Of a stretch of 64,000 nucleotides of DNA, positions 15,851 through 59,103 are shown in pieces (within the stretch, counting starts at the first letter, position 1; every line of letters begins with the position of its first letter). The notes below the pieces were generated by a model. It searched no databases. It saw only the letters and a list, made by a program, of their open reading frames with translations, and was not told where the DNA came from. This stretch comes from Candidatus Hermodarchaeum yapensis (GTDB taxonomy: Archaea; Asgardarchaeota; Hermodarchaeia; Hermodarchaeales; Hermodarchaeaceae): the NCBI GenBank assembly GCA_016840405.1, contig JAEOSK010000001.1, positions 32,001 to 96,000 on the forward strand. The letters run 5' to 3'. Position numbers and translations under genes: made by a program.

Positions 15851-16186
15851 TTAGTCTTCCTCTTCGGGTTCTGGTGGTTCAGTAAATTCAGTTGGTTCTG
15901 TTGCTTCTGCTGGTCTAGCAATATTCATTCGTGCTTCTTGAACCATTCGCCCAATCGTCCCAAACATCCGCTCGGGGGAAAACATCGGCATCGATACGCT
16001 GTTTTGGATAGCATTGAAGATTTCATTATGATTCAAATCGGTCGTCAGGCGAGTAGTACCGATTTCAGTTGGACCACGAAAAATCCGAACGGCCCATTGA
16101 TCTGCCACACGTCCGAGTTCTACTAAATATGACGTCATGGGGAGGAGGTATTTTTGGGTGATGGGTTGATATTCTTGGGACATCAA
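15851..16186 (-). CDS. Hypothetical protein
   Basis: 111-aa ORF with GAGG upstream and acidic Pro tail. Confidence 0.7.
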   Translation of the reverse strand: MMSQEYQPITQKYLLPMTSYLVELGRVADQWAVRIFRGPTEIGTTRLTTDLNHNEIFNAIQNSVSMPMFSPERMFGTIGRMVQEARMNIARPAEATEPTEFTEPPEPEEED

Positions 16187-16268
16187 AAGCCGCCTCTATT
16201 TATCGTATCCATCGACATGAGCTAAAAAGCCTTTGTGCCCGGTTTTTCTAGCACTTCAGAGCTGAATC

Positions 16269-17498
16269 TTAAGCAAGAAGGGCTTGAACTTCGTCAGGGA
16301 ACTCTATTTCGATATCATTGCGAACCAACTTGGAAATTCCAGATTCAAGGCGTTTTTGCAGGGTTTTTAACCGCGCAGTAATCCGGGTGACTTGTTCCTC
16401 TATATGCGCGATTTCAGATTTCACATCCCGATGCTCCCACTCAGCACGTTCCAAGGATTTCTCCAAATCTCGACGCTCATCCGACGACACCGCACTCTCT
16501 AGCTCATCTTTCCGAGACGCAAGGTTGGAAAACCGCAACCGATACTCATCTAAGTCCCCTTTCTCAACTACCCCGGTCTTCCGATCCAACACTTTTCGAT
16601 TCAAACTCGCCTTAAAATTCATCTTACCATTTTGAATAGCCTCCGCCAACGCCATCAATCCTGCTTTCAACCGCTCAAGATCATCTGTATCACGCTGGAA
16701 AGCCGTCCACGGATCCTTCGAATATGCATCGGCCCCCTCGCCCGCTACTGAGGAGATCATTATCGACTGGCCTGCCGCCTGACTTACCTTCTTAAACGGT
16801 TTCTTGAGAAAATTCAACTGGTTCGTCACAATCATTCGAATACTATCAATTTCCTTGCGGATTCCATCGATCTCCGCCAAGCCAGAATCCATCCTGAACT
16901 GTTCAATCCCCTCCTGGTGTTCCTCGACCCTCCCCGCGGTCTGCTCCTTCTGTTCCCTTAACTTCGCCAATTGTTCAGATAATGCCAACACGTGTCGAGA
17001 CCGCTCATCAATCTCCTCTACTTCCTCACCAACCAGTTCCACCTGCTTCGGTAATTTTTCCTTTTCCCAATTTTTCTTAATCTTCTGATATCCCTGTCCA
17101 ATCGACCTAAATTGGTAATCCAACTCTTTGATAATCTTCTTATGCACACGCGGTAACCGCGGAATATACCGCCGCCCAGCATGCGTCGTATCCTGCAAAT
17201 AATCCTCTAAATCATCCAGCAATTCCTCTACCGAAGAATAGGTAATCTCCTCTGGAAACACCATGTCCTTTGCACTACTTTTCAAACGGCTCGCTAACTT
17301 CTGAGCCGAACCGGGCACCGTCAACTCCCCATCAATCACTACCTCTTCCAATAGCTCATCCGACGTCTCTACCGTTTTCACCAACGCCTCATCAATCCGG
17401 TCCAACTGCTTCTGAATATCCAACCGATAATTCGAAAGCAACTCACTGGTCCGCTCAGCAAACCACTCCGGCAACTCATGCACGCCAATCACAGTCAA
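16269..17498 (-). CDS. Long helical/coiled-coil hypothetical protein
   Basis: Heptad-rich, E/K/L-rich, central FLKKPFKK motif; no ATPase motif. Confidence 0.8.
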   Translation of the reverse strand: MTVIGVHELPEWFAERTSELLSNYRLDIQKQLDRIDEALVKTVETSDELLEEVVIDGELTVPGSAQKLASRLKSSAKDMVFPEEITYSSVEELLDDLEDYLQDTTHAGRRYIPRLPRVHKKIIKELDYQFRSIGQGYQKIKKNWEKEKLPKQVELVGEEVEEIDERSRHVLALSEQLAKLREQKEQTAGRVEEHQEGIEQFRMDSGLAEIDGIRKEIDSIRMIVTNQLNFLKKPFKKVSQAAGQSIMISSVAGEGADAYSKDPWTAFQRDTDDLERLKAGLMALAEAIQNGKMNFKASLNRKVLDRKTGVVEKGDLDEYRLRFSNLASRKDELESAVSSDERRDLEKSLERAEWEHRDVKSEIAHIEEQVTRITARLKTLQKRLESGISKLVRNDIEIEFPDEVQALLA

Positions 17499-17660
17499 TC
17501 TTCACAGCCTCGCTTCACAAAACAGAACCACCTACTAAAAAAACTACCTCAAGAGAATCCTAATCACCACCCCGCCCAAGCAGCTTGCACGAAAAGCTTA
17601 TCAACGCTCTTCCATAGTCAAGAATGCAACGCTAAAATCTTATGCTGTGGTGAGCGGGCA

Positions 17661-18551
17661 ATTATCCATAATGCAATTCTTTTCAACATCAGCCCCCGCA
17701 AAGACGAAGTCGGGCTCCAAGCCAACGTCATCTTCCACAAACAATACTGGCGCGTCCCCCTCAGCGACAACATGATCGGCGAATTCTTACGCGCCTACAA
17801 AGAATTCATGAGCCACGTCCAAAGCACCGACCTCCCCGCCCTCCCAATCCACATCCAAGGCACCAAATTCATCTTCACCAACATCGAAGACCTCCTCCTC
17901 GTCTTCATCAGCCACATGCAAGACGACGACAGCCGCGTCAACGAAAAAGTCAAAACCGCCCTCCGCATGCTCGTCGGCAAATACGGCACCGAACACATCA
18001 AAGACATCGCCACCAACAACAACACCCAACCCATCGAAGACCTCATCGACAACTACATCATGAGCAAACTCAAAGTCAGCCTCGTCGGCGAAGGCGGCGT
18101 CGGCAAAACCACCCTCCTCCGCCTCCTCAAAGGCACCGCCCCACCCACCGAATACGTCCCCACCATCGCCCTCAGCATCGAACAAATCGAAGCCACCCGC
18201 TACGGCACCTACCAAATCATCCTTTGGGACTTCGCCGGCCAAGAACGCTTCCGCCGCCTCTGGACCATCTACTTCCGCGGCTCAGATATTGTATTTATTA
18301 TTACGGACTCCACCCTCAACAACGTCATCGCCACCAAAGAAATCCTCGACGTCATCCGCAAAGACGCCCCCGGCGTCCCCGTCTGGGCCATCGCCAACAA
18401 ACAAGACCTCGAAGGCGCCCTCTCCCCCGAACTCGTAGAACGAATTTTAGGTATTCCAGCATTTGGTATGGTCGCCATCGACCAAGCCCGCAAAGAAGAG
18501 ATGCTCCAAATTTTGCTGGATGCAGTCGATCGCTACATCGGGACGGAGTAA
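17661..18551 (+). CDS. Longin-like domain plus Arf/Rab-superfamily small GTPase
   Basis: GEGGVGKT, YVPTI, WDFAGQ, ANKQD; N-terminus IIHNAILFN...FHKQYW aligns with paralog MIHNVFIMN...FHRQYW at 41779; likely start is ATT at 17661 (track start 17478 overlaps the divergent gene). Confidence 0.88.
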   Translation: MIHNAILFNISPRKDEVGLQANVIFHKQYWRVPLSDNMIGEFLRAYKEFMSHVQSTDLPALPIHIQGTKFIFTNIEDLLLVFISHMQDDDSRVNEKVKTALRMLVGKYGTEHIKDIATNNNTQPIEDLIDNYIMSKLKVSLVGEGGVGKTTLLRLLKGTAPPTEYVPTIALSIEQIEATRYGTYQIILWDFAGQERFRRLWTIYFRGSDIVFIITDSTLNNVIATKEILDVIRKDAPGVPVWAIANKQDLEGALSPELVERILGIPAFGMVAIDQARKEEMLQILLDAVDRYIGTE

Positions 18552-40737: not shown

Positions 40738-41757
40738 ATCCCTCGTGGGCTAGTTCTCAGTCATTGGGACACCAAAGAAGGACTCAAGATACTAGCCAAT
40801 TATCCGGCATCCTTAGAAATTGATGCCGAACAACTTTCGATGATGTTTTTCAACTGCGCTCCCGAAGAATCAGAGCATATTTTCAAAGTCTTTCCTTCAA
40901 AGGATGTAACAGAGCGCGCAGCAGTAGCTTGCACCAGAAGTCTGCGTGATGGCATCGAAGATGATATCTTCATTACTGCACTCCTCACCGCCGAGGAAGA
41001 AGGATCTGTGTACGAAGAAATCCTCACCGCTACACTTCAACGGCTCCTAAAATTGAAAGGCGATCCGGTAAAAAAGCAACGCAGGTATCGTCAAATCCTC
41101 TCTGACAGTTATCGAAAAATCGAACGCCGTGGGGGCTCACGCGACCGCTCTCTCTGTCCTTACATGTATGAACGACCCATAAGAGACGATGAGATTACAT
41201 CCTTCTGTCGTGTTGTCAAAAAACAATGCTATCTCACCATCTATGAAATGCCCGGGTATCCCCAATGTCCGCGATATATTCGCCGTCAACGACAAATCCA
41301 ACTTGCCAACGCCCGTCAACTGGTACGTGCAGGTATCCAGCGTATCCTTGAAGACCACGACCAACAACGTCAAGACGCTAAACACCATAAACCAGGTACC
41401 TGGAGCGAACCCATTCATACAATTCTTGATCGCGTTTTTGCTGTCCTCAGTCTGTCAGAAAAAACCGAAGATCTCTCCCATAATATCGTCGAACACGTCG
41501 GGAAAGAAGGGCTTTTTCAGGGGCATCCTCGCCCCATTGTTGCTGCTTCTATCGCCTATTATGCTGCAAAACAGACTGGCGACTCTCTACCCGAAAATGA
41601 TATAATCGAACTCGTCGGATGTTCTCGTACTTCCCTACGCCGAAACTACCGGGAACTTCGAAGCCTTCTCGGCTCTGATATAAAGAAACTCCCCATGCAA
41701 AAACCACGGCGGCGACGTACAAGCACCCAAGATAAAGCGGTTACTCGCGCTGAATAA
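40738..41757 (+). CDS. Longin/uDENN-like domain + Cys4 Zn-finger + single TFIIB(TFB) cyclin/HTH domain fusion
   Basis: Frame is open 34 codons upstream of the track start (IPRGLVLSHWDTKEGLKILANYP...) and matches the N-terminus of the 42846 protein; C-terminus LSLSEK...GLFQG....VAASIAYYA...IIELVGCSRTSLRRNYREL matches the TFB C-terminal repeat. Confidence 0.75.
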   Translation: MPRGLVLSHWDTKEGLKILANYPASLEIDAEQLSMMFFNCAPEESEHIFKVFPSKDVTERAAVACTRSLRDGIEDDIFITALLTAEEEGSVYEEILTATLQRLLKLKGDPVKKQRRYRQILSDSYRKIERRGGSRDRSLCPYMYERPIRDDEITSFCRVVKKQCYLTIYEMPGYPQCPRYIRRQRQIQLANARQLVRAGIQRILEDHDQQRQDAKHHKPGTWSEPIHTILDRVFAVLSLSEKTEDLSHNIVEHVGKEGLFQGHPRPIVAASIAYYAAKQTGDSLPENDIIELVGCSRTSLRRNYRELRSLLGSDIKKLPMQKPRRRRTSTQDKAVTRAE

Positions 41758-41778: not shown

Positions 41779-42648
41779 ATGATTCACAATGTCTTCATCA
41801 TGAACCGTGACGGACGTATCGCCTTCCACCGCCAATACTGGTCAGTTGATATTACCACCGAAATCCGCCAAGAATTCATTGCCACCTACAAACACTTCGA
41901 AAAGGACCTGGGTCCCACCGTCGACCTTCCAATCCACGTTAAAAACAATAAATTCCTCTACACCGATCTGGGCACCCACCTTCTCCTTGTCTTCGCGGTC
42001 GATACCAGCGACGAAGATGAAACCATCCGTGAATACCTCAAAAAAACCCGTGAACTTCTCATCACTAAATACAGCCACGAAATCGACTCATACATCCAAA
42101 ACCCCGTTCCCCTTGGCCAAGCCTTTCAAGAATTCGCCAAAGAACTTGACAGCGTTATCGTCACCATGCTCAAAATCTGCCTCCTCGGACAAGGCGGCGT
42201 CGGCAAATCTACCATGCTCAAACTCCTCACCGCTGACAGCATCCCTGGCGAATACTACCCCACGATTGCGGTCGACATCGAAACCCTCCAAGGCGTCCGA
42301 TTTGGTCCCTATGAATTGGCGGTCTGGGATTTTGCAGGTCAAGACCGCTTCCGTTCACTCTGGAACTATTATCTCCGTAATGCCGATGCCGTATTGTTAG
42401 TAACCGATTCGACGTTGAAGAATGTGCTCGAAACCCGCGACATTCTTGAGGTTGTACGGAAAAACGCGCCTTCCTCAATTGTCTGGTCGATTGCAAACAA
42501 ACAGGATCTCCCCGGAGCACTAGCTCCGAAACTGGTTCAACGTATTCTCGGTGTTCAATCCTACGGGCTAGTAGCAATTGATCCCCGGTATCGCGAAGTG
42601 CTTTATAAGATAATTCTCGGGGCTGTAGCTGAAGCGACTACGGACTAG
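41779..42648 (+). CDS. Longin-like domain plus Arf/Rab-superfamily small GTPase
   Basis: MIHNVFIMNRDG longin-like start; GQGGVGKS, YYPTI, WDFAGQ, ANKQD. Confidence 0.92.
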   Translation: MIHNVFIMNRDGRIAFHRQYWSVDITTEIRQEFIATYKHFEKDLGPTVDLPIHVKNNKFLYTDLGTHLLLVFAVDTSDEDETIREYLKKTRELLITKYSHEIDSYIQNPVPLGQAFQEFAKELDSVIVTMLKICLLGQGGVGKSTMLKLLTADSIPGEYYPTIAVDIETLQGVRFGPYELAVWDFAGQDRFRSLWNYYLRNADAVLLVTDSTLKNVLETRDILEVVRKNAPSSIVWSIANKQDLPGALAPKLVQRILGVQSYGLVAIDPRYREVLYKIILGAVAEATTD

Positions 42649-42845: not shown

Positions 42846-44444
42846 ATGCCACACGGATTAAGTGTATGTAGATGGGACGATAAAGTAGGTCTCCGCATTG
42901 TGGGAGTGTATCCGCGTAATCTTGGTGTGTCCGAAGATGACATGTTGCGTGTGTTTACGGCGCATGCGATGGGCAAACCGGAAGCGGGTTTTTTGACGAT
43001 GACTCTTGAGGGGACGAATCTGGCGGTGGCCTCGTTTTATACGGGCATTTTGCGGGGTCGGGACCAGTTTTGTATTATGTTGTTTATGGAGCTCGATGAA
43101 GAGCCCCGAAGTTATGAAGAGGGTTTGACATTAGCGTCAAGTGAGATTGTCGAAAATATTGGTGAACCAGAGTTTGTAGAATACATGGGTGAAGTGTTTG
43201 AGAAACTGAAGCGGATGGTGGAACTGTCTGTAGAGCAGCGACTTGCCAAGGTGTTTGTTGATCATGAGACGCGGTTATTGATGCATAAGCTAGCCCGCGG
43301 TGGCATCCCTGCTGAAGAGTTGCGAGAGTGGCTAGAGTTACAGACTGGGAAACACTACCCTGATTTAGGTCTAGTTACCTTACCGTTACTGCGGAGCGGG
43401 TTAGTAGAAGAAGACTGGATTAATGCAGTCTCAGACAACTGTGTTTTCTTGGTGAATGACCTGTTGGGCGCGCGGTTTCCACCCGAGCAAGTGATCAAAC
43501 TGGCCAAGGGTGGCGGATTGAATAAGGAACAGTTACGCGAACTCGAAACCCGAGTGAAGAGCTTCTTTGAAGGGTATCAGTGGACGGAAGAAGACACCAT
43601 CATGATGGGGCAGCTGCTTCTTGACCCAGATATTTACGATGTGACAAAGACGTTGCGTCGGAAAATTACGCATAAATCCGAGTTAGCTGGTGTCGTCGAA
43701 AAAGAAGCCTCCCTTGATAATGTGCTTCGGCGATTAGAACAGGCACAAGTGATTACAAAATTTGGAGCGAATGCCATCGAGGTAGCAGCTAAAGATGATC
43801 CGCTGATTGTATTAATGGCGGATGTACACTTCGAATCTTTCTTCCCAGAGTTCTTGGTTTTACGAATTCAAGAGCGACTCGAGGCAAAGGATATTCATCC
43901 GGATATCGCAAAACGGCATCTTGAGTTACTCAGTGAAACGTACATGCGTATGCGTGAGAAGATGAAGGAACGCAAGAAGCGGAAAGAGGAAGAAGAGAAA
44001 GCCGAGGAAGAACTCCCTGAAATGGAAGGGGAAATGGTACCTCCTCCTGAACCAGCAGAAATTGAAACTCCTGAGGTCCTCGAATCGGCGCCCGCTGACG
44101 AAGAAGAAGCTAAGCGAATTAAAAAAGAAGAAGAGATAGCGCGAAAAGAGGAACAGAAGCGGCTCAAAGAAGAGGAAAAGCGTCTAAAGGCTGAAGAGAA
44201 ACAGAAGAAGAAAGACGAAGAAAAGGCGCAGAAAGAGGAAGAGAAGAAGCGTAAGGAAGAGGAGAAGCAGAAGAAGAAGGAAGAGGAACAGAAGCGTAAG
44301 GAAGAGGAGAAGCGCCTGAAGGAAGAGGAGAAGCAGAAGAAGAAGGAAGAGGAACAGAAGCGTAAGGAAGAGGAAAAGAAACGCAAAGAAGAAGAGAAGC
44401 AAAAGAAGAAGGAAGAGAAGAAAAAAGAGAAGGAATCCTCTTAG
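42846..44444 (+). CDS. Longin/uDENN-like Asgard-type protein with winged-helix-like middle and ER/K charged tail
   Basis: MPHGLSVCRWDDKVGLRIVGVYP N-domain; about 110-aa E/K/R repeat tail. Confidence 0.75.
   Translation: MPHGLSVCRWDDKVGLRIVGVYPRNLGVSEDDMLRVFTAHAMGKPEAGFLTMTLEGTNLAVASFYTGILRGRDQFCIMLFMELDEEPRSYEEGLTLASSEIVENIGEPEFVEYMGEVFEKLKRMVELSVEQRLAKVFVDHETRLLMHKLARGGIPAEELREWLELQTGKHYPDLGLVTLPLLRSGLVEEDWINAVSDNCVFLVNDLLGARFPPEQVIKLAKGGGLNKEQLRELETRVKSFFEGYQWTEEDTIMMGQLLLDPDIYDVTKTLRRKITHKSELAGVVEKEASLDNVLRRLEQAQVITKFGANAIEVAAKDDPLIVLMADVHFESFFPEFLVLRIQERLEAKDIHPDIAKRHLELLSETYMRMREKMKERKKRKEEEEKAEEELPEMEGEMVPPPEPAEIETPEVLESAPADEEEAKRIKKEEEIARKEEQKRLKEEEKRLKAEEKQKKKDEEKAQKEEEKKRKEEEKQKKKEEEQKRKEEEKRLKEEEKQKKKEEEQKRKEEEKKRKEEEKQKKKEEKKKEKESS
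44256..44420 (+). repeat. Coding tandem repeat, 66-nt unit (EEEKQKKKEEEQKRKEEEKxxK)
   Basis: 53 nt identical starting at 44256 and 44322; third partial unit follows. Confidence 0.85.
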
Positions 44445-46276: not shown

Positions 46277-46633
46277 TTATTCACCAGGATGCTTACTCAT
46301 TATGTCTTCCCGAGACAGAAACTCGGGATCATCGACGATGGCAATACTACCATAGCGTCCCGCGGAAAGTTCCATCTCGCCACGAAACGTTTTGATAAAA
46401 CCATTTTCAACCTCGACGATTACACCTTCATCAACTTTGTCGATGTCATCATTCCACAGGGACAATTTGATTGTACCTGTTTCATCTCCCGCTTGGGCCG
46501 TGGTAACACGTGCCTTTCCATATCGTGTTTGCACATCTCGAACCGGCTCTAATGTCAAGATACGTAAACGAATGTCAACACGACGCGATGCAGACGTTAG
46601 TTCATGAACTTTCATTTTCTGAAAAACCTTCAT
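46277..46633 (-). CDS. Single OB-fold ssDNA-binding protein (SSB/RPA-like)
   Basis: AGDETGTIKLSLWND...VENGFIKTFRGEMELSAGRYG. Confidence 0.9.
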   Translation of the reverse strand: MKVFQKMKVHELTSASRRVDIRLRILTLEPVRDVQTRYGKARVTTAQAGDETGTIKLSLWNDDIDKVDEGVIVEVENGFIKTFRGEMELSAGRYGSIAIVDDPEFLSREDIMSKHPGE

Positions 46634-46718
46634 AACAGGAATTTACCAAGGATGTACTAATGCACACTTTTAAAAATTGTAGGGTAACAGGTTTTTCGTG
46701 AGACGAAGTGAATTTTGC

Positions 46719-48440
46719 ATGCCTTCACCCACGCCGTTTAACAAACTTGCTGAAGTGTCTGAAAAAATCTTGGCGACTACAAAACGCCTGGAAAAAATGG
46801 ATGCTGCAGGTTCCTTCCTCTCAAACGCTCATCCTGATGAGATAGAAGCCGCTTCGCTTCTTCTGATTGGCCGTCCATTTCCACGGACTAGTCAACGGAC
46901 ATTAGACCTTGATTGGTCAGCGCTATACAAGGTTCTTCAAGAGTTACTGCAACCGTCTTCCGAATTAATCAGTGAGTTGTTTGCACAGTCAGGTGACATT
47001 GGTGAGGTGGTTCACCAATTGTTCCTGCGTTCAGGGAAAATTCGACAAACAACACTTTTCACTGTGCCTTTATACGTTCAAGAGGTATATTCCATATTCA
47101 CAGAAATCGCTGATGTTCAGGGTCCAGGGTCACGAAAACGAAAAACAGCACTTCTACGGTCACTATTCACTCGCGCCACACCACTTGAAGCAAAGTATCT
47201 AGCCAAAATTTTGGTGGGTGACCAACGGATTGGGTTTAGTGAAGGGATGCTTGAAAGCACAATTGCGCGAAAGTTAGACCTCTCTCTCGATTTGGTCCGT
47301 CGGGCGAACATGCTGAGAGGTAACATTGGTGAGGTTGCACAAATTGCATTCACCGAGGGTGTTGAAGGTCTTGAAAAGGTCGAATTACGCCCCTTTACTC
47401 CGCTCCTACCCATGCTTGCTTCTCAAGCTGAAAATGCTGAGAATGCCCTTCAAACACATGATGGAACATCTGCGTTTGAAACGAAAATTGATGGGGCTCG
47501 AGTTCAAATTCACATGCAACATCAAAATGACACACACCAGATACGGATTTACAGCAAACGACTCACTGAAGTCACACCCAGCTTCCCTGATCTCGTTGAG
47601 CTTGTTGAACGAGAAGTGAAAACACAAAGCTGTATTCTTGAAGGTGAAGTTCTAGCGATGGATGCACAAGGACGACCTTATCCCTTTCAACACTTAATGC
47701 GACGATTCCGACGTGTACGTAATGTCGAAGAAATGATGGCTGAATTACCTGTAACCCTGTTTCTCTTCGATTTATTGATGATAGATGGTAAAGTGCTCAT
47801 TGATACACTCTACACCAGTCGACGCGAAAAACTAGACAAAGTACGGGGGACAATACCCTTAGTCGATCAATTGGTGTCCTCTAAAGTGGATGAAGTATCG
47901 GCTTTCTTTGACAAGGCCATTGAAGCTGGGCACGAGGGACTCGTAGCGAAAAGGCTCGACAGCACCTATCAGCCCGGTATCCGAGGTAAAGCTTGGCTGA
48001 AAATTAAACGGAGTATGGAAACCTTAGATTTAGTAATTATTGCTGCCGAGTGGGGAACCGGTCGGAGACATAAATGGCTCAGCGATTACCACCTAGCGGC
48101 TCAAGATCCAGAAACAGGCGAATATCATATGTTGGGAAAAACGTTCAAAGGTCTAACTGATGCTGAATTTGCAGAGATCACCCAACGGCTTTTAGAGCTG
48201 AAAATTGAACAAACGCGAGGAACCGTTAGGGTTCAACCACGAATTGTCGTTGAAGTCGAATATGATGAGATTCAACGAAGCCCAACGTATCAATCCGGTA
48301 TGGCCCTTCGGTTCGCACGAATCAAACGCCTTCGCTACGATAAAGGTCCAGAGGACGCAGATACCATACACCGGGTTCAAGCATTATATGACTCCCAGTT
48401 CTCTAGGAAAGCCTCATCAGATCTCGTAGGCCGAAGCTAA
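46719..48440 (+). CDS. lig: ATP-dependent DNA ligase
   Basis: ETKIDGAR (KxDG), EGE, FDLL, EGLVAK, WLKIK, LRFARIKRLR.DK. Confidence 0.97.
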   Translation: MPSPTPFNKLAEVSEKILATTKRLEKMDAAGSFLSNAHPDEIEAASLLLIGRPFPRTSQRTLDLDWSALYKVLQELLQPSSELISELFAQSGDIGEVVHQLFLRSGKIRQTTLFTVPLYVQEVYSIFTEIADVQGPGSRKRKTALLRSLFTRATPLEAKYLAKILVGDQRIGFSEGMLESTIARKLDLSLDLVRRANMLRGNIGEVAQIAFTEGVEGLEKVELRPFTPLLPMLASQAENAENALQTHDGTSAFETKIDGARVQIHMQHQNDTHQIRIYSKRLTEVTPSFPDLVELVEREVKTQSCILEGEVLAMDAQGRPYPFQHLMRRFRRVRNVEEMMAELPVTLFLFDLLMIDGKVLIDTLYTSRREKLDKVRGTIPLVDQLVSSKVDEVSAFFDKAIEAGHEGLVAKRLDSTYQPGIRGKAWLKIKRSMETLDLVIIAAEWGTGRRHKWLSDYHLAAQDPETGEYHMLGKTFKGLTDAEFAEITQRLLELKIEQTRGTVRVQPRIVVEVEYDEIQRSPTYQSGMALRFARIKRLRYDKGPEDADTIHRVQALYDSQFSRKASSDLVGRS

Positions 48441-48456
48441 ATTCCTCGATGATGAT

Positions 48457-51400
48457 TTAGCTCCGAAGACGGATTTCTTGAGAAGCCGAAATCCATCGAG
48501 GTCCAAGCGTTCGGTTAAAGAGTGAAATGTAACTAGCTTGATCACTAACCACGGCAACAATTTCACCCTGGTCCACTGCTGTTGGAGCAATAAGGACTTC
48601 TTCACCATCACGTGATCCTCCATAAAATTTCATTACAGGATTATCCCAAATTCGGATATTCCCTTGTTGGAGGAGTTTCTTCGCGCTTGTCTTATGTTTA
48701 TCACCATCAAGAGTAGTAATTATATGAACACGACTTTGGGGCTTGACCTTACTCAGTTCATCGATTGGCACTTCCTCAAAGGAAGGATACACCAACGTGA
48801 CTGTCTCGTTGACACGTCGAAACATTTCCAACAGATGGTTCTGAACACCCTCACAGGTTACTACTATGCCAGTTCGTTCGACCTCAGCGAGTTGAAGAGT
48901 AGAAAGCGTTTCCCATAAACCAGCTAGGATTTGTTCAGTACCAGTGGCTTGGTTCCGGAGGCGCTCTAGGATGGGCTCTGTTTTCATCGAAAAGAGCTGC
49001 AATGTATTAACTGATGTGGTTTCTGCTGATTTTGCTTTAGATGTAATTTCTTTGGCAAGAGTTTGGTATTCGGTTTTCAGAGTTTGTCGCTCTTTGCTCA
49101 ATGTCCGGCTTATCCTTCTCCCCGTTTGTTGTGTCTGAGCAACCAATCCTTCTTCTGCGGTTTCTGTGATTTGTTGTACCGCCGCTAGAATATTACTACT
49201 CCTTTGATTAATATCGGTCAATGCGGTCTCTTCGAATTGTTGCATCACCTCATTCGTATGACGAATATTATCTTGGGTGGCACGAGCCAACCGGGTCTTA
49301 ATCAAATCGAGGGATTTTGCATGGCTTTGAAGGCTTTGTTCAATATCCTGGCCAAATGCTGTTTTGAGTTTCTCATTGTCTTCATCGATAGCTTGACTTG
49401 TATCAGAAATAATTTTGCTTAGCTCTCTTTGAGAGCCAGAAAGTGTCGATGTGCTCAACTCAATAAGCTGATCTAGGGTTGCATTTACGCTATTACCTAA
49501 AGCGGATAACTTCTCTCGTAGCTGGTCTGACAGAGTGTTGGTGTGTGTAGTCAAACTACTCTGTTGAGCCTGAATTATCTCCGCACCTTTTGATACGGTT
49601 TGATTTTTGGTTTCTTCTAACACCATTTCAATTTGTTCGCTTGTAAGAACAGATCCTTCCTTTCCTTCTTCAGCAATTTGTGTCAGTTGATCGATTAATT
49701 GAGTTTGAATCGTATTAAGCTCTTCAACAAAGGATTGAAACACAGATGAACTCTCTTTACTAAGTGATGCTTGTTGGTCATCAATAGCAGTTAGCAAATT
49801 CACTTTATTCATTTCAAGCAGTTTACTTGATTCTGTGTTAATCGTTTCACTAGTGCTTCCAATTGCCTCAACCAGTTTGGAAGCAACAGTTTGTAATTGT
49901 ACAAGCTCCTGCTGGAGAGTAGACACATAGTCTTCAGTTTCATCCAAAAGTGCAGTAGCAAAGGTTCCTAAGTGTTTATCAATTGCATTTCGTTGCTCAT
50001 CAATTTTCGAAGCACAAGTTTGCCCAATATTCTCAATTATGTCCTGGGTACTAGTAATTTGGTTTTGATCAAAATTCTTTAGTTGGGTTTGAATTTCAGA
50101 AATTGTCGCAGTCACAGTCGCACTTTGTTCACGGATTAGGTCTCGCATGTGATCAACTATGTCTTCTGCGCGTTTGGTTTGTGATTCTGATTCGTTTTGA
50201 ACGCTTTCCACAAATTTGTCAGCTGTTTGACGAATTGCAGAAAGGTTGGAGTCAGTTGCTGTTTCAATCTCGTCTGACATTGTCTCCATTTTTTGCGTCA
50301 AGATGGTTTCTTGAGCGCTAATATCCTCGACTAATCCTTCCAGTAGAGTTTCTGTTTCATTAAGCTGGGCAAGGCAATCTTCTTGCATTTCATTGATTCC
50401 CTGAGTAAGTTGTTCATTGAATCCTGTTTTCTCGCGTTCAAAGGCTTGAGCTGTGGCTGTCAGTAAATTCCCTGCATCATCTCCAAAATTCGCGAGCGTC
50501 GTGGAAACATTCACCGTTGCTTGATCAACAGCCGAACCAATAGCTGTATTAAGGGCATTAAGATTCGCTGCGATATTAGACGAATAGTCATCCATTATCT
50601 TGGTAATGGGCAGCCAATAACGATCAACTCGTGTTTTCACACGCGTATCATACTTTTCAAGAGCCTCACCTAGCTTAGTTTCAAGGGCTTGAATTGTGGA
50701 GCTTACAGGAGGCGCCTGAGTATCTTGATATTCTCGGAGTTTTTCTGACAATTGAGTTCGAAGACGTTTATCTAAGCTATTTTGAAACGCAGTATTTGCT
50801 TGAACTTCCAGATCTGCATAACTGTTTGTGAGGGTTGTTTGATAGTTTTCTACTGCTGTGCTGGAACCTTTCTTCACAAGGTTGGTAAGTGTAATTTTCA
50901 AGTCATTGCTGTAATTAGCATAGAGTAGCTGTTCATGAAGGGATCTGAGTTTGGTTGCGATGTTTTTCGCATAGTCTTTTTGTTGTTTTTCAAGAATAGA
51001 TTGATAATCAACGAAGATTGACTGGGGAGTAATGACCTGGCTGTGAAGATGCTGTTCAGCTAATCCTGGGAGTAGTTCTTGAGGGAGTTGTTGCAGGGTC
51101 GAAAGTGTTTCTTCAAATATTGTTGAAATTTGTGATTCCCGGTCAGTTTGATTGCGGAGTTTCTCTCGAAATTCATCCAAAATGACAGTTAATTCGTTTG
51201 TGAGTTTATCACGAACCATCTTCTTCTCTTTTGGTAAAAGGGTCTTTGGAAGGGCAAGAACTCGGTTCACGGTTTTTTGGAATAGGGTGTCTATTTGTTT
51301 TTCTCGCTTAATCTGCCGTGATACTTTCGTTTTACAATTACGAAGATTGGCAGTTATCTGAGTTGAGAATTCTTCGTTTATTAACTCGATGAGCTTTTGG

Positions 51401-53844
51401 GTTTGCTCATCTTGTATTGTATTGAATTCTTCACGGGTCTTTTTGAAAATTGTATCAGATTGTTTGTTGAAAGCTGCGTATTGTTTTGCAGTAAAGTCTT
51501 GAAATGCTGTCAAGAGTGTATCAAGTTGTGTTTTTATGCTCAAGATGATTTTCTTGTTAATTCTCTTGAGTGCAGCTTTTGTTACTTGCTTTCTTCCAGC
51601 TAATTGGGCGGTTTTGGCTGCTTGCTTTTCCAAGGTTGTTTGTTTGTTTTTCAGTGTGGTCTTGTAACCATCTAAGGCTGCTAGGGCATTTGGAGGTATT
51701 ATTTCTGAAAGAGAGGTAGTTAGACCATTGATTACTTTTAGATCTCTGTTGGTTAACTGAGTTGAATGGGATTGAACGGCCTTAGCAATCGCTGCTTCTC
51801 GTTTATCTTGAATTTCAATAATTGAGGGCTGAAACTCTGCAATTGCGGTTTCAACTTTGGCAATCTGTTCCTGTCTTAAACGGGTTGCAGTGGTTTCAAC
51901 ACCATCAGAGTATTGTTTCACAATATTTTCAAGTTGGGAAAATTCCCTTTGCAACTCTGAGGTTGATGTGTTCGTGATTTTATTCAAGGCTGCTTTAAAT
52001 GTACGCAGCTGTTTATCTACAATTTGTTGAGTCTTGGTGGCTTTAGTGATATTTTCTGCTGCTGCCTGTTTAACTGCCTTCTGGGTTTGTCTAATCCTGT
52101 CTTGAGCATATTGACCGATTTGATCCTTAGTTGTTTTTAGGCTAACAAGCACAACGTTTCTTTCTTGGTTTACCAGTTTTTGGACCCGTTTACTAAGAGT
52201 ACGACTCTGTTCTTCTTGTAATGCAATTTTCGATTGGAAATCGGTGAGAAACGATTCAGTAGTTTTTTGGGCAGTTGTCAACCGTCGTTTTAGCCGTTTT
52301 CCAATCTGGCCTCCCATGGATTTGAAATTCTTTTGCAGAGTGGTTTGTGTTGCAGCAAAATTCTTGATTATTGATTGGAGGAGAGTGCGTACTTCAAGAA
52401 GGTGGGAAAGGTAAGCATCCCTCATTTCGATACCTAAACCTTCACTGGCGGCCTCAAGGATTTGTTCATGTTCTAATTTCACTTGTTCTGTAAGCGCGGC
52501 TAAATCAAATTTGATTTTTGAGAACTGATTAAACGTGAGTGCAGAAGGTGGCCATTGAGCAATAGTTGTGCTCGCTTCTTTATGCAACCCTTGGAATCCC
52601 CGGCTAGTGGTTTCAAATGACTTCTGCAACTCTTGAAAGAGGGAATTAGTGATTTGAACAGAAGTTTTTCGGGAGGTATTTATTGTAGTTTCCATTTCAG
52701 TTGCGGTTTTATTTGCTCTCTGTGTTAAACGGCGGCCATCTTTCTTCAGCGCCTTCTCCATTTGTACTACAGTTTCATTCAATGCCTGGGTTCGTCGCGT
52801 CCAAACATCAAAAACTTGAGTGTTGATATCTTGAATGCTCTTTGAGAGGGTTTTTTCAATGCCTGCTTGAAAAGTTTTGAGGGCTTGTTGTGATTCTTGA
52901 CTATAGGTGTCGATTTTGCTTGTAAGATCAATAGCAGTTTCGTCTGTAATTTCTGATGTACCTTCTTTTTGTGTCGTAATTCCTGCTGATAATGTCTTGA
53001 GGGTGGAATCAACACTTCTCTGGTAAACGGAGTCGGCGTCTTCAAGGTGTGATTTCACTTGTTGGGTACAGGTATCCGCTTGATTGAGTACACGGTCTGC
53101 AATTGTTGTGGTCCATTGTTCTGTTTCCTCTCTGTGAGTTTCCATCGCCTTGTTGGCATCGTCCAAAGCTAGTTTCTGGGTGTCCTCGAATTGCTTTTTT
53201 CCCTCTCCTATTGTTTGTTTAAGAGATTGTTGCAGAGCAATTGTTTGATTTGATAGTTCATCGGTGCTTGAAGCAGAAAGATTGGTCAAAGCTTTTTGAA
53301 GGTTTTCAGAAACATTGCTCAAAACAATATTTGTGGTCATCGCGGCTTCATTCAATGCAATTCCCTGTCGCTCATTCAGATGTTCCAAGGATGAACGGAT
53401 CTGTCTGGTCATGGACTGTAATTCGCTGTGTATCTCGTCTGTGGTTTTGTTTTGAAGTTTTTGTAATTCTTTCCATGACGCCCGAGTTTCCTTAGAAAAT
53501 GCTTGAACTTCATTAGCTAGTTCCTTATAGGGTGCAAAAGCTCGGTAACGAGCAACCACGCCGGGGAGCGGTTTGACCAACTGTTTCTTCACGAGTGCGG
53601 CGATTGTACTCTCGACTTTGACTAGAGGAACGCCTGAATAGAGACTTATTTCTCCGGGTGTTAGTCGGCCCATAATTAGCAAAGCCGTGTATACTCGGCT
53701 CTGTGGCTCAGAAAGTTTAAATTGGACCTGCAATGCTAAAAGCAAGTCCGGAGAAATCTCAATTGGTGCTGGGCACTGTGGAGAACTTGCCTTCTCCCTT
53801 TCTGGGGCTGGAGGGGGGTTAGAATTACCTTCTTGTGGCGTCAT
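48457..53844 (-). CDS. Giant TrmB-family protein: N-terminal wHTH, ~1500-aa helical insert, C-terminal TrmB effector-like domain
   Basis: LSEPQSRVYTALL..G.LTPGEIS..SGVP..KV...I..L.KK.LV; C-terminal GVQNHLLEMF.RVNETVTLVYP...RDGEEVLIAP. Confidence 0.85.
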   Translation of the reverse strand: MTPQEGNSNPPPAPEREKASSPQCPAPIEISPDLLLALQVQFKLSEPQSRVYTALLIMGRLTPGEISLYSGVPLVKVESTIAALVKKQLVKPLPGVVARYRAFAPYKELANEVQAFSKETRASWKELQKLQNKTTDEIHSELQSMTRQIRSSLEHLNERQGIALNEAAMTTNIVLSNVSENLQKALTNLSASSTDELSNQTIALQQSLKQTIGEGKKQFEDTQKLALDDANKAMETHREETEQWTTTIADRVLNQADTCTQQVKSHLEDADSVYQRSVDSTLKTLSAGITTQKEGTSEITDETAIDLTSKIDTYSQESQQALKTFQAGIEKTLSKSIQDINTQVFDVWTRRTQALNETVVQMEKALKKDGRRLTQRANKTATEMETTINTSRKTSVQITNSLFQELQKSFETTSRGFQGLHKEASTTIAQWPPSALTFNQFSKIKFDLAALTEQVKLEHEQILEAASEGLGIEMRDAYLSHLLEVRTLLQSIIKNFAATQTTLQKNFKSMGGQIGKRLKRRLTTAQKTTESFLTDFQSKIALQEEQSRTLSKRVQKLVNQERNVVLVSLKTTKDQIGQYAQDRIRQTQKAVKQAAAENITKATKTQQIVDKQLRTFKAALNKITNTSTSELQREFSQLENIVKQYSDGVETTATRLRQEQIAKVETAIAEFQPSIIEIQDKREAAIAKAVQSHSTQLTNRDLKVINGLTTSLSEIIPPNALAALDGYKTTLKNKQTTLEKQAAKTAQLAGRKQVTKAALKRINKKIILSIKTQLDTLLTAFQDFTAKQYAAFNKQSDTIFKKTREEFNTIQDEQTQKLIELINEEFSTQITANLRNCKTKVSRQIKREKQIDTLFQKTVNRVLALPKTLLPKEKKMVRDKLTNELTVILDEFREKLRNQTDRESQISTIFEETLSTLQQLPQELLPGLAEQHLHSQVITPQSIFVDYQSILEKQQKDYAKNIATKLRSLHEQLLYANYSNDLKITLTNLVKKGSSTAVENYQTTLTNSYADLEVQANTAFQNSLDKRLRTQLSEKLREYQDTQAPPVSSTIQALETKLGEALEKYDTRVKTRVDRYWLPITKIMDDYSSNIAANLNALNTAIGSAVDQATVNVSTTLANFGDDAGNLLTATAQAFEREKTGFNEQLTQGINEMQEDCLAQLNETETLLEGLVEDISAQETILTQKMETMSDEIETATDSNLSAIRQTADKFVESVQNESESQTKRAEDIVDHMRDLIREQSATVTATISEIQTQLKNFDQNQITSTQDIIENIGQTCASKIDEQRNAIDKHLGTFATALLDETEDYVSTLQQELVQLQTVASKLVEAIGSTSETINTESSKLLEMNKVNLLTAIDDQQASLSKESSSVFQSFVEELNTIQTQLIDQLTQIAEEGKEGSVLTSEQIEMVLEETKNQTVSKGAEIIQAQQSSLTTHTNTLSDQLREKLSALGNSVNATLDQLIELSTSTLSGSQRELSKIISDTSQAIDEDNEKLKTAFGQDIEQSLQSHAKSLDLIKTRLARATQDNIRHTNEVMQQFEETALTDINQRSSNILAAVQQITETAEEGLVAQTQQTGRRISRTLSKERQTLKTEYQTLAKEITSKAKSAETTSVNTLQLFSMKTEPILERLRNQATGTEQILAGLWETLSTLQLAEVERTGIVVTCEGVQNHLLEMFRRVNETVTLVYPSFEEVPIDELSKVKPQSRVHIITTLDGDKHKTSAKKLLQQGNIRIWDNPVMKFYGGSRDGEEVLIAPTAVDQGEIVAVVSDQASYISLFNRTLGPRWISASQEIRLRS

Positions 53845-56891: not shown

Positions 56892-57072
56892 GATAAAACG
56901 CCTTCTAGTTGTTGGTGGAATGTTGCGAGTTTGATAGAAGCTCGAAAGTACCTGTTCTTATGCATATCACTTACTCAAGAATTCTGCTTTCATCAGAACA
57001 GCTTTAATTGTTGAAAAAGGTAATCCTAACAGTTCCTTGAAAAACCCTAACTTGACAGGTGGAATTCGTGAA

Positions 57073-59103
57073 ATGACGCTCACCAACGATGATGAATTAA
57101 TTTACACGTCTGACGAACTTGAATTTCGTTCACATGTGCGTGAATTTGTAAATCGTGAAATCAAGCCCTTGGTCAAGCAGATTGAAGAAAGGAATTTCGA
57201 TTATCGTGGGTTTTTCAAAAAAATCGCTGACGCTGGGTTTTCAGGGTTGTTACTTCCCGAAAAGTATGGTGGGTCCAACAAGTCCTTGATGTATCAACTT
57301 ATTGCAGGGGAAGAAATCTCAGCTGTATCGCCATCTGCCTTGATGATGTTCGGAGCAAGTTGCATGTTGAGTGCAGTTCCTATACTCCGATTTGGCTCAG
57401 ATGAGCTAAAACAGCGATACCTTGTTCCCTTAGCCAAAGGTGAATCGATTGGGGCTTTAGCAGTAACAGAACCTGCTGTGGGAAGTGATACTGCTGGAAT
57501 GGAGACTCGCGCTGTTTGGAGTGAAAAGGAGAACTGTTGGATTCTCAATGGTGAAAAACGCTATATCACTAATGGGAGCATCGCTGACCAAATCATAGTC
57601 TTCGCAATTACTGATCCCAAAGTTGACAGCAAAAGTGGAATGTCTGCATTCATCATCGAATCAGCATGGAAAGGATTCTCTGTGGAAAGAGATTATTCAC
57701 TGATGGGACGGGGAGGAAGTTACGCATCACATATCCGATTTGAAAACCTGAAAGTGCCCAAAGAAAATCTACTCGGTAAGCTCAACCAAGGCTTTCTCAT
57801 CCTTATGGATGAATTAGATACAGAAAGGATCGGTATTGCCGCTGAAGCACTCGGTTGTATGCGAACTCCCTTCGAAATCGCTGTCACTTATTCACAAGAA
57901 CGTGTTCAATTTGACCGACCCATCTCTCGATTCGAAGGAATATCTTTCAAAGTTGCAGACATGGCCACCAAAATGCGTGCGGCCCGGCTCCTAATCGTGG
58001 CTGCAGCCCGAATGGTTGATCAAGGACTCCCCTGCACTAAAGAAGCCACCATGGCAAAACTCTTTGCTACCGAAGCAGCCGTCGAAGTGTGTGATCTCGC
58101 CATCCAAATCTGTGGTGGCGCAGGGTATGTCAAAGACTACTTCCCCTTGGAGCAGTTCTACCGCGATGCTCGTCTTGGAACCATTGGTGGTGGCACATCC
58201 GAAATCATGCGGTTTCTCATTCAACGAGAAGTGTATATTGAAGACAAACGCAGTAAAGCCCGGGCACAGGTCATGCCAGAGGTAGAAGAACTTGACTTCG
58301 ATACACTCATGACAGCAATTCCGAATGGCTTTCGTTCTGAACGCGCCGAAGGTGTAACCGCTAAAATTCAGTTCCTTTTTCCTGATCAAACCCCTTGGCT
58401 GATATCAATCAAGGATCAAGAGTGCAGTATCAAAAAGAAACAAATCAAAAATCCAACAATGACCGTGAAAACCGATTCTAATACGTGGAGAAGTATCCTT
58501 CTTGGGAAGCTTGATGCCATGCAAGCGATGACGACAAGCAAAATCGTCATTGACACTGATGATATGGATTTATTATTGAAATTTGCCCGCATGTTTCGGT
58601 TCACACCCGAAATCCTTCAAGATATCACTGCTAAATCCATACGCCCTCCGAAAACACCAGATAGAAGCGAATCAGAATTTAAGCTAGGTAAGAGCCTGAA
58701 TGAAATCAAAATCGGCGAGAAGGCACAAGGATCAATGAAGGTTACAGCCGAGCATATTGAATGGTACGCCAAACTATCAGGTGACTATAATCCTCTCCAT
58801 TTCAACGACGATTATGCCGCTACGACTATCTTTGGTCGACGAATCGCACATGGTCCAATTGGAGGCGCCCTAGTCGCTCAAATTCTTGGCATGCAATTAC
58901 CGGGCTTGGGCACACTGGCTTACAATATGAAGGTGAATTTCACTGCTCCTGTTTTTCCGGGGGATGAAATCACTGCCATAGTCGAAGCCACAGAAAAAGT
59001 GCCAAAGAAAAACCTGCTCCGACTTAGCTTCAATGTAGTAAATCAAAATGGACTCGAAGTGATGAACGGCTACGCTAATGTTCTCCCACCACTCAAAGAG
59101 TAG
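57073..59103 (+). CDS. Acyl-CoA dehydrogenase + SCP2 + MaoC (R-hydratase) triple fusion
   Basis: TEPAVGSD, LNGEKRYITNG, ERVQFDRPI, YRDAR..TIGGGTSEI; SCP2-like AEGVTAKIQF...GKLDAMQA; SGDYNPLH...RIAHG. Confidence 0.9.
   Translation: MTLTNDDELIYTSDELEFRSHVREFVNREIKPLVKQIEERNFDYRGFFKKIADAGFSGLLLPEKYGGSNKSLMYQLIAGEEISAVSPSALMMFGASCMLSAVPILRFGSDELKQRYLVPLAKGESIGALAVTEPAVGSDTAGMETRAVWSEKENCWILNGEKRYITNGSIADQIIVFAITDPKVDSKSGMSAFIIESAWKGFSVERDYSLMGRGGSYASHIRFENLKVPKENLLGKLNQGFLILMDELDTERIGIAAEALGCMRTPFEIAVTYSQERVQFDRPISRFEGISFKVADMATKMRAARLLIVAAARMVDQGLPCTKEATMAKLFATEAAVEVCDLAIQICGGAGYVKDYFPLEQFYRDARLGTIGGGTSEIMRFLIQREVYIEDKRSKARAQVMPEVEELDFDTLMTAIPNGFRSERAEGVTAKIQFLFPDQTPWLISIKDQECSIKKKQIKNPTMTVKTDSNTWRSILLGKLDAMQAMTTSKIVIDTDDMDLLLKFARMFRFTPEILQDITAKSIRPPKTPDRSESEFKLGKSLNEIKIGEKAQGSMKVTAEHIEWYAKLSGDYNPLHFNDDYAATTIFGRRIAHGPIGGALVAQILGMQLPGLGTLAYNMKVNFTAPVFPGDEITAIVEATEKVPKKNLLRLSFNVVNQNGLEVMNGYANVLPPLKE

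Follow-up and report, generated by a model that had tools for sequence, protein, structure and literature searches.

A candidate structural DNA-binding protein of the TrmB/TrmBL2 family with a predicted ~105-nm hairpin rod in an Asgard archaeon

Positions 48457-53844 of a 64,000-nt stretch of Candidatus Hermodarchaeum yapensis DNA (contig JAEOSK010000001.1, positions 32,001 to 96,000; hereafter the window) hold, on the minus strand, an open reading frame (ORF) that is open across 1795 codons plus a stop. An earlier note on this DNA, made from the letters alone, had described the product as a TrmB-type regulator whose two halves are split by a helical rod of ~1500 amino acids (aa) that folds back on itself, and had raised the possibility of a chimeric assembly. 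We can rule out a chimera: 25 full-length or near full-length homologs come from independent assemblies, and those that are full-length span 1788-1814 aa, down to an identity of 32%. The gene is present in a single copy in the host genome (2.7 Mb, 86% complete, Asgard). Its orthologs are labelled Promethearchaeota or Hodarchaeota, and the source annotation is 'sugar-specific transcriptional regulator TrmB'. The parts of the gene, including a winged helix-turn-helix (wHTH) domain and a phospholipase D (PLD)-like domain, are listed below, with the basis for each in brackets; models are from AlphaFold2 (AF2), with their predicted local distance difference test (pLDDT) values.

48457..53844, minus strand: whole coding sequence, 1795 aa plus stop (open frame; 25 homologs)
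53758..53844, minus strand: aa 1-29, Pro-rich N-terminal tail, weakly conserved (alignment and composition)
53509..53757, minus strand: aa 30-112, TrmB/TrmBL2-type wHTH with conserved wing PGVV.RYRAFAP (PF01978; TrmBL2 E=1.6e-9)
51412..53508, minus strand: aa 113-811, predicted coiled-coil N arm, hendecad (period 3.66-3.68; pairing with the C arm at i+j≈1745-1750)
52546..52554, minus strand: aa 431-433, invariant WPP joint with a jump in hendecad register (opposite invariant 1306-1324)
51031..51411, minus strand: aa 812-938, apex cap, predicted four-helix bundle, net charge ~+6 (AF2 pLDDT 84; 4uos Z 11.1)
51232..51306, minus strand: aa 847-871, copy one of the 55-aa central repeat, REKQID..LF...LP..LLP (hhalign)
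51067..51141, minus strand: aa 902-926, copy two of the 55-aa central repeat (hhalign)
48934..51030, minus strand: aa 939-1637, predicted coiled-coil C arm, with a basic, highly conserved neck at 1550-1637 (periodicity and charge)
48460..48933, minus strand: aa 1638-1795, C-terminal PLD-like domain of TrmB/TrmBL2 type, the most conserved part (profile and AF2 alignments)

The N-terminal end of the protein resembles TrmB proteins at the level of single-sequence searches. Residues 38-105 matched the Pfam TrmB family PF01978 with 36.6 bits when the whole protein was searched and with 43.4 bits when aa 1-200 were searched alone, against a gathering cut-off of 25.6 bits, and the NCBIfam TrmB match extended to aa 188. 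When a profile of the orthologs covering aa 28-330 was compared with the PDB, it retrieved TrmBL2 (E=1.6e-9) and TrmB (E=4.4e-7). The wing motif K/R-Y-R is retained in the wHTH as R-Y-R, as judged from a HMMER alignment to TrmBL2.

The C-terminal domain (C-domain) has the highest column identity of the protein in the ortholog alignment (85-89%). As a single sequence, aa 1600/1620-1795 gave no meaningful Pfam family or PDB sequence match. When 1.84 billion representatives were searched by profile, 281 proteins proved to have this domain, always at their C terminus; a profile built from 87 C-domains of the family had TrmBL2 as its top PDB match (E=0.009), and 34 of these 87 domains matched PF11495 (Regulator_TrmB). 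Foldseek gave no match at E<=0.001 for either AF2 model, and the informative structural matches come from a second look with VIA-align. The C-domain model (pLDDT 70.7) aligned with the PLD-fold structures NucT (Z 6.9) and PLD3 (Z 6.0), with TrmBL2 (Z 5.6-5.8, aa 146-264) and with TrmB (Z 4.2, aa 130-243 of 3qph/2f5t), and AF2 placed a single helix across aa 1541-1648. Given that the C-domain lacks a Pfam or PDB match of its own and needs the family profile, its homology to PF11495 is transitive and of moderate strength. The HKD motif (HxK..D) was not found by a motif scan of the protein, and no sugar-binding beta-barrel was found in the AF2 model alignments, where the chain ends with the PLD-like subdomain. 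We conclude that the architecture is of the TrmBL2 type rather than the TrmB type. The proposal that TrmB halves lie at both ends was thus borne out, above the PF01978 cut-off at the N end, and by family profile, PF11495 matches in relatives and AF2 fold at the C end.

The region between these domains, aa 113-1637, is made up of T 12.1, L 10.6, Q 10.1, E 8.8, K 7.6 and P 0.9%, in agreement with the earlier description of a Q/T/E/K/L-rich, Pro-poor insert. No transmembrane segment was found (maximum 19-aa Kyte-Doolittle mean 1.2), nor any signal peptide-like segment; a motif scan detected neither Walker A/B nor CxxC, and Pfam and NCBIfam contained no matching ATPase family, so the claim that the protein has no membrane or ATPase motif also stands. 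The hydrophobicity spectrum peaked at 3.66-3.68 residues (11/3, a hendecad), with power at 3.5 about ten-fold lower. Between the periods of 7 and 11/22 residues that had been put forward for comparison, heptads can therefore be set aside in favour of 11/3. The hendecad register was coherent over 106-435, jumped at the invariant WPP at 431-433, was regular again in 436-720 and 1030-1645, and was irregular in 720-1030. Occupancy followed an a/d/e/h pattern with a narrow hydrophobic face. Within the N arm, WPP 431-433 and P673 are conserved breaks, and the PP at 717-718 forms a kink. Net charge is acidic along the arms (-10 to -23 per segment), +6 in the cap, and basic in the C-terminal neck.

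Only four 1-residue indels occur in the rod across 22 orthologs, such that its length stays at 1522-1525 aa down to 32% identity; this is the outcome of a comparison of insert length across orthologs that the earlier note had called for. One relative has a rod protein of 32% identity beside a ligase of 68% identity. Rod sequence drifts, and rod length does not. We attribute the near-total absence of indels to a register lock between the two arms.

The central repeat reported in the earlier note is real: the copies lie at aa 850-871 and 905-926, and hhalign aligned 821-875 with 876-930 at a probability of 94.7%. Separately, hhalign paired two rod segments of ~390 aa, 448-842 and 1128-1513, at a shift of ~680 (probability 99.4, E=1.8e-21). 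This match is possibly an ancient internal duplication of arm material and possibly an artefact of periodic composition; we grant duplication no more than possibility, since hhalign scores run high for periodic helices of low complexity.

Several lines of evidence from the ~1795-aa ortholog group point to a fold-back of the rod. Column entropy was mirror-symmetric at i+j=1749-1750, where i and j are paired positions (detrended r=0.56-0.60, best among 900 centres). For six independent 120-aa windows, the expected mirror partner ranked 1, 10, 1, 278, 61 and 6 out of more than 1000. The anti-diagonal mean of mutual information peaked at c=1743-1749 (smoothed z 3.8-4.2) and remained the global maximum after column-entropy normalisation, with a local contribution of 0.00 to 0.18 per window. 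A sum of 1750 sends residue 113, at the border of one terminal domain, to residue 1637, at the border of the other. Pro sites are roughly opposed across the fold (P673/P1079 and PP717-718/PP1045-1046), and WPP 431-433 lies opposite the invariant stretch 1306-1324. At the level of single residues, the pairing of conserved positions reached 36 pairs at c=1757, against a maximum of 35 for a null that keeps density per 100-aa bin. Since this is no better than the density-matched null, the mirror signal must sit at a scale of 15-100 aa. A mirror correlation of hydrophobic register carries no information here, because the register differs among segments.

The AF2 model of aa 690-1060 (pLDDT 84.4, predicted template modelling score 0.43) consists of long helices interrupted at 844-847, 864-874 and 898-903; the helix breakers at the midpoint are P866 and P871. 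This model aligned over its full length with hairpins, namely the chemoreceptor MCP 2ch7_B (297 aa, Z 10.1) and the Rad50 coiled coil (308 aa, Z 9.9). The central part of the model, aa 812-938, resembled four-helix bundles (4uos, Z 11.1, root mean square deviation (rmsd) 3.8, 127 aa; FAT domains, Z ~9.5). Given that the central repeat lies within this modelled four-helix centre, we reasoned that the repeat forms a cap at the fold, which gives a new meaning to a feature that had been noted only as a repeat. A predicted complex of aa 28-330 with aa 1420-1795, run without controls, scored 0.31 against a mark of 0.32.

Relatives that share the C-domain carry an N-terminal TrmB-like wHTH and linkers of 82 to 1680 aa, all with a period of 3.63-3.69. 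In a 761-aa class (17 species, 55-98% identity), linker indels are confined to the midpoint in all genomes except one (L007), which has an 11-aa insertion in each arm, at reference positions 183-189 (N arm) and 500 (C arm). The sequences identify this as a natural compensatory double insertion of one hendecad. A midpoint motif, RG[SA]A[FW]KALF.GKHK or KKGFFWMGKKKK, is common to proteins of 757-1050 aa; on either side of it the lengths of the N and C arms agree to within a few residues, for arms that range from 252 to 402 aa (r=0.99). Together, equal arms and matched insertions indicate that arms grow in matched pairs about a fixed apex. Mirror conservation in the 761-aa class peaked at 703-704, in a tie with 592-609; the remaining length classes, at 13-20% identity, are too divergent for column statistics. 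The antiparallel fold-back that had been proposed to reunite the terminal domains is hence supported by mirror conservation, covariation, the AF2 apex, symmetric arms and paired 11-aa insertions in relatives, and we regard the fold-back architecture, as read from sequences and models, as well supported.

As an observation on the same relatives, the predicted hairpin tip of shorter paralogs (L005-L024, ~761-857 aa; P0145, P0131, P0124, P0146 and P0129) carries a conserved aromatic-basic motif, KKGFFWMGKKKKYKARH or RGSAFKALFLGKHKKYK, which looks like a membrane- or nucleic-acid-binding loop. The 1795-aa class is without this motif.

We propose, with slightly more confidence than doubt, that the protein is a cytoplasmic, ATP-independent, structural DNA-binding member of the TrmB/TrmBL2 family, shaped as a hairpin rod with a capped apex and serving as a fixed-length spacer, tether or bridge of the nucleoid. 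In this proposal, a hendecad coiled coil of ~1,524 aa would stand where wHTH and PLD-like domain are otherwise joined by a dimerisation helix of ~30 aa. The N arm (113-811) and the C arm (939-1637) would pack antiparallel at i+j≈1750, bringing the wHTH alongside the C-domain at one extremity, and the four-helix-bundle cap (812-938), built from the two 55-aa repeats, would lie at the end opposite this head. An arm of 699 aa at 0.15 nm per residue makes a rod of ~105 nm most likely, which is longer than the 'tens of nm' suggested in the earlier note. To judge from homology and charge, the head (the wHTH wing, the basic neck at 1576-1605 and the C-domain) would bind DNA, probably after two heads have paired, as happens in other TrmB proteins and in PLD folds of a single domain. 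The rod, which is net acidic, would then point away from DNA, and the basic, conserved cap may contact a second partner, which could be a further stretch of DNA, a second cap or an anionic membrane. A DNA-bound head combined with a partner-bound cap is what would make the rod a fixed-length spacer, tether or bridge. DNA binding by the head and the tether or bridge role are both inferred.

Some observations weigh against this proposal. The DNA-contacting residues Tyr50 and Asp51 of TrmB/TrmBL2 align by HMMER to variable position 78 (Glu here) and to Ser79. Covariation was computed from only 22 sequences (effective number 17), and the topology of the AF2 apex was read indirectly, from structural alignments with an rmsd of 9-11 Å. 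Among 75-80 family members, the linker midpoint showed no enrichment of Pro/Gly (p=0.66-0.81) and no lower hendecad amplitude, with a weak excess of amplitude minima at relative position 0.5-0.6. The gene neighbourhood reflects synteny of a whole block and offers no functional clue. Finally, a head-to-tail intermolecular dimer would account equally well for the mirrored conservation, the covariation along anti-diagonals, the paired 11-aa insertions and the equal arms; only the modelled AF2 apex and the midpoint helix breakers favour an intramolecular hairpin over such a dimer.

In a head-to-tail homodimer, the main rival to the hairpin, two antiparallel full-length chains would form an extended rod of ~220 nm with the wHTH of one chain beside the C-domain of the other at each end, as in an enlarged domain-swapped TrmB dimer. 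Having a DNA-binding head at either end, such a rod would link two DNA sites directly. The rod resembles apolipoprotein A-IV (ApoA-IV; E=8.9e-8), which crystallises as a reciprocating swapped dimer. A precedent also exists within the family, since the linker helices of P. furiosus TrmB are antiparallel between monomers (Phe81/Ile91' and Phe84/Leu88'; PMC4158304). However, the AF2 model of the 690-1060 monomer doubles back with a four-helix cap and aligns to intramolecular hairpins, and residues that break helices lie at the midpoint, P866 and P871 in this protein and apex motifs with Gly in its relatives. A rigid rod of 220 nm would, moreover, approach the size of a small Asgard cell. We therefore consider the head-to-tail dimer unlikely. 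We consider a parallel two-stranded coiled coil, which would hold a wHTH pair and a C-domain pair ~225 nm apart, to be the least probable arrangement of the rod: the helix that follows the wHTH commonly dimerises in parallel among wHTH regulators, but a parallel dimer leaves unexplained the conservation mirrored about residue 875, the covariation at i+j≈1745-1750, the matched insertions and the equal half-lengths about a conserved midpoint motif, and the AF2 apex turns back.

Two further readings concern function. The 11-mer amphipathic helices might lie on membrane or lipid in the manner of apolipoproteins or perilipins, maybe after opening of the hairpin, and anchor DNA along the rod. The period is exactly 11/3, the ortholog profile matched ApoA-IV structures (E=8.9e-8), PF01442 (Apolipoprotein) scored 93 bits in a 1907-aa relative (cut-off 90), and some paralog classes have the aromatic-basic tip GFFWMGKKKKYK. 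In the protein studied here, however, PF01442 reached only 47.3 bits, in four stretches and below the cut-off; there are no Pro-punctuated 22-mers (Pro 0.9%), the hydrophobic face is narrow, and there is no signal peptide or transmembrane segment. Furthermore, repeat proteins that coat lipid can vary in repeat number, whereas this rod is nearly indel-free and shows arm-to-arm covariation. A lipid-binding rod is thus quite improbable. We think it more improbable still that the protein is an ordinary ligand-sensing TrmB transcription factor whose helical region is a lineage-specific, largely dispensable expansion or scaffold. The annotation of the orthologs would suit such a regulator, as would the strong conservation of the C-domain, which could bind a ligand. 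However, no sugar-binding barrel follows the PLD-like subdomain, as is also the case in TrmBL2; the rod is invariant in length down to 32% identity, unlike a dispensable spacer; and paralogs keep fixed class lengths across families. The parallel dimer, the lipid coat and the sugar regulator all fit the data poorly.

TrmBL2 of the Thermococcales (PF0496/TK0471; PDB 5box, 5bpd, 5bpi and 5bqt) is the closest relative of the hairpin-rod protein, being the best PDB sequence match for both ends and a structural match for the C-domain. The two share the order extended N-terminal wHTH, helical linker and PLD-like C-domain without a barrel. They differ in that TrmBL2 has 264 aa with one ~30-aa dimerisation helix, at the position of which the rod protein has 1,524 aa; in addition, the Tyr50/Asp51 contacts are not kept, and identity in structural alignments is 10-16%. 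TrmBL2 coats DNA non-specifically (PMC4877046) and acts as a chromatin protein and a roadblock to SMC (PMC11840125). The sugar sensors TrmB/TrmBL1 (3qph and 2f5t) have the PF01978 wHTH and the PLD-like effector subdomain in common with the rod protein, whose linker begins where the TrmB dimerisation helix begins. However, these sensors have a C-terminal sugar-binding barrel and a short linker helix of ~30-40 aa, as opposed to no barrel and a giant linker, and we do not expect the rod protein to be a sugar sensor.

SMC, Rad50 and MukB likewise use an antiparallel intramolecular coiled coil, of ~50-100 nm, to reunite the N and C halves of a head, with a specialised apex and conserved arm length. 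The AF2 apex model aligned with the Rad50 coiled coil as given above, and Foldseek listed the MukB elbow, with no match at E<=0.001. In place of their ABC ATPase head, hinge or CxxC zinc hook, and heptads, the rod protein has a wHTH plus PLD-like head, a predicted four-helix apex, and hendecads. The parallel with SMC/Rad50 drawn in the earlier note accordingly applies to architecture and does not extend to the ATPase, hinge or zinc hook; the likeness is one of analogy, not homology. With ApoA-I, A-IV and E (PF01442; 3s84) the rod protein has an amphipathic periodicity of 11/22 residues in common, but it is cytoplasmic, lacks a signal peptide and Pro-punctuated 22-mers, and has paired arms and an invariant length, such that this likeness is probably convergent periodicity.

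The rod gene is convergent with a gene for an ATP-dependent DNA ligase, beyond which lie genes for an Ssb-like oligonucleotide-binding (OB) protein, a VTT-domain protein and RNase HII. The two neighbours listed here are given for context only.

46698..48440, plus strand: ATP-dependent DNA ligase, convergent neighbour (synteny in relatives L002-L004)
46277..46633, minus strand: Ssb-like OB-fold protein, neighbour (synteny in relatives)

The gene order AFOR...Aldedh-aminotransferase-[rod]-ligase-ssb-VTT-x-rnhB is kept in the relatives L002-L004, and synteny there spans the entire block of ~20 kb, metabolic genes too. The convergence on the ligase and ssb genes that had been pointed out earlier is therefore real and conserved, but because the whole block is syntenic it tells little about function or about a role in replication or repair.

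Other features of the window were recorded in passing. A 532-aa ORF without a Pfam family lies at 42846-44444 (plus strand); at the equivalent syntenic site, flanked by rnhB and an Arf/Ras-type GTPase gene, L002 and L003 have a 534-aa gene with no Pfam match recorded. Two small GTPases of the Arf/Roc/Ras family, with N-terminal extensions of 130-200 aa, are encoded at 41779-42648 and 17478-18551 (both plus strand), and both are typical Asgard eukaryote-signature proteins. Just upstream of the former is a 305-aa ORF without a Pfam family (40840-41757). The strongest GC-skew excursion of the window (-0.305, at 16001-18000) coincides with a 409-aa ORF, also without a Pfam family, at 16269-17498 (minus strand). 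At 57037-59103 (plus strand), a 688-aa protein fuses acyl-CoA dehydrogenase, SCP2 and MaoC dehydratase; the L002 version has 532 aa and is without MaoC.

The C-domain was found in 112 of the 151 genomes searched from the Asgard phylum, and in 56 of the 72 high-quality ones, with 1-4 copies per genome in open frames of ~550-2090 aa and with class lengths fixed within families; overall, the length classes of the C-domain family run from ~320 to 2,090 aa. The ~1795-aa class was found only in the GTDB family of the window itself; full-length frames of 1794-1811 aa came only from its genus, because the frames in the sister genus are all truncated by contig ends. Family members with names are all Asgard (Sigyn-, Ran-, Njord-, Kari-, Hod- and Promethearchaeota), and the nearest ESM Atlas clusters are TrmB proteins of Promethearchaeota. 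A homolog search seeded with a 1307-aa relative returned nothing beyond the query.

Taken at the strength given above, these data would mean that Asgard archaea turned the scaffold of TrmBL2, a major chromatin protein of archaea, into giant hairpin rods of fixed length. Of the Asgard genomes searched, about three in four carry this rod family, often in several length classes each, and all its members are annotated as hypothetical or as a 'sugar regulator'. The family is large and apparently undescribed: a literature search found no published description of a giant TrmBL2-like rod family, and we know of no characterised counterpart to a DNA-binding head on a 100-nm ATP-independent rod. Its hendecad coiled coil is unusually long and regular for a natural one and has compensatory one-hendecad insertions, which makes it useful for coiled-coil structural biology. 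More speculatively, and with far more doubt than confidence, the family could be an ATP-independent 'molecular ruler' of Asgard archaea, in which a head of TrmBL2 type would be seated on chromatin and a stiff rod of lineage-fixed length, ~105 nm here and roughly 10 to 125 nm in other classes, would space DNA from a structure bound at the tip, which could be membrane, cytoskeleton or another DNA segment. If true, the ruler would amount to a prokaryotic equivalent of chromatin-envelope tethers, and would physically organise the nucleoid in the archaea closest to eukaryotes. The rod family offers a testable handle on nucleoid organisation in the lineage from which eukaryotes arose.

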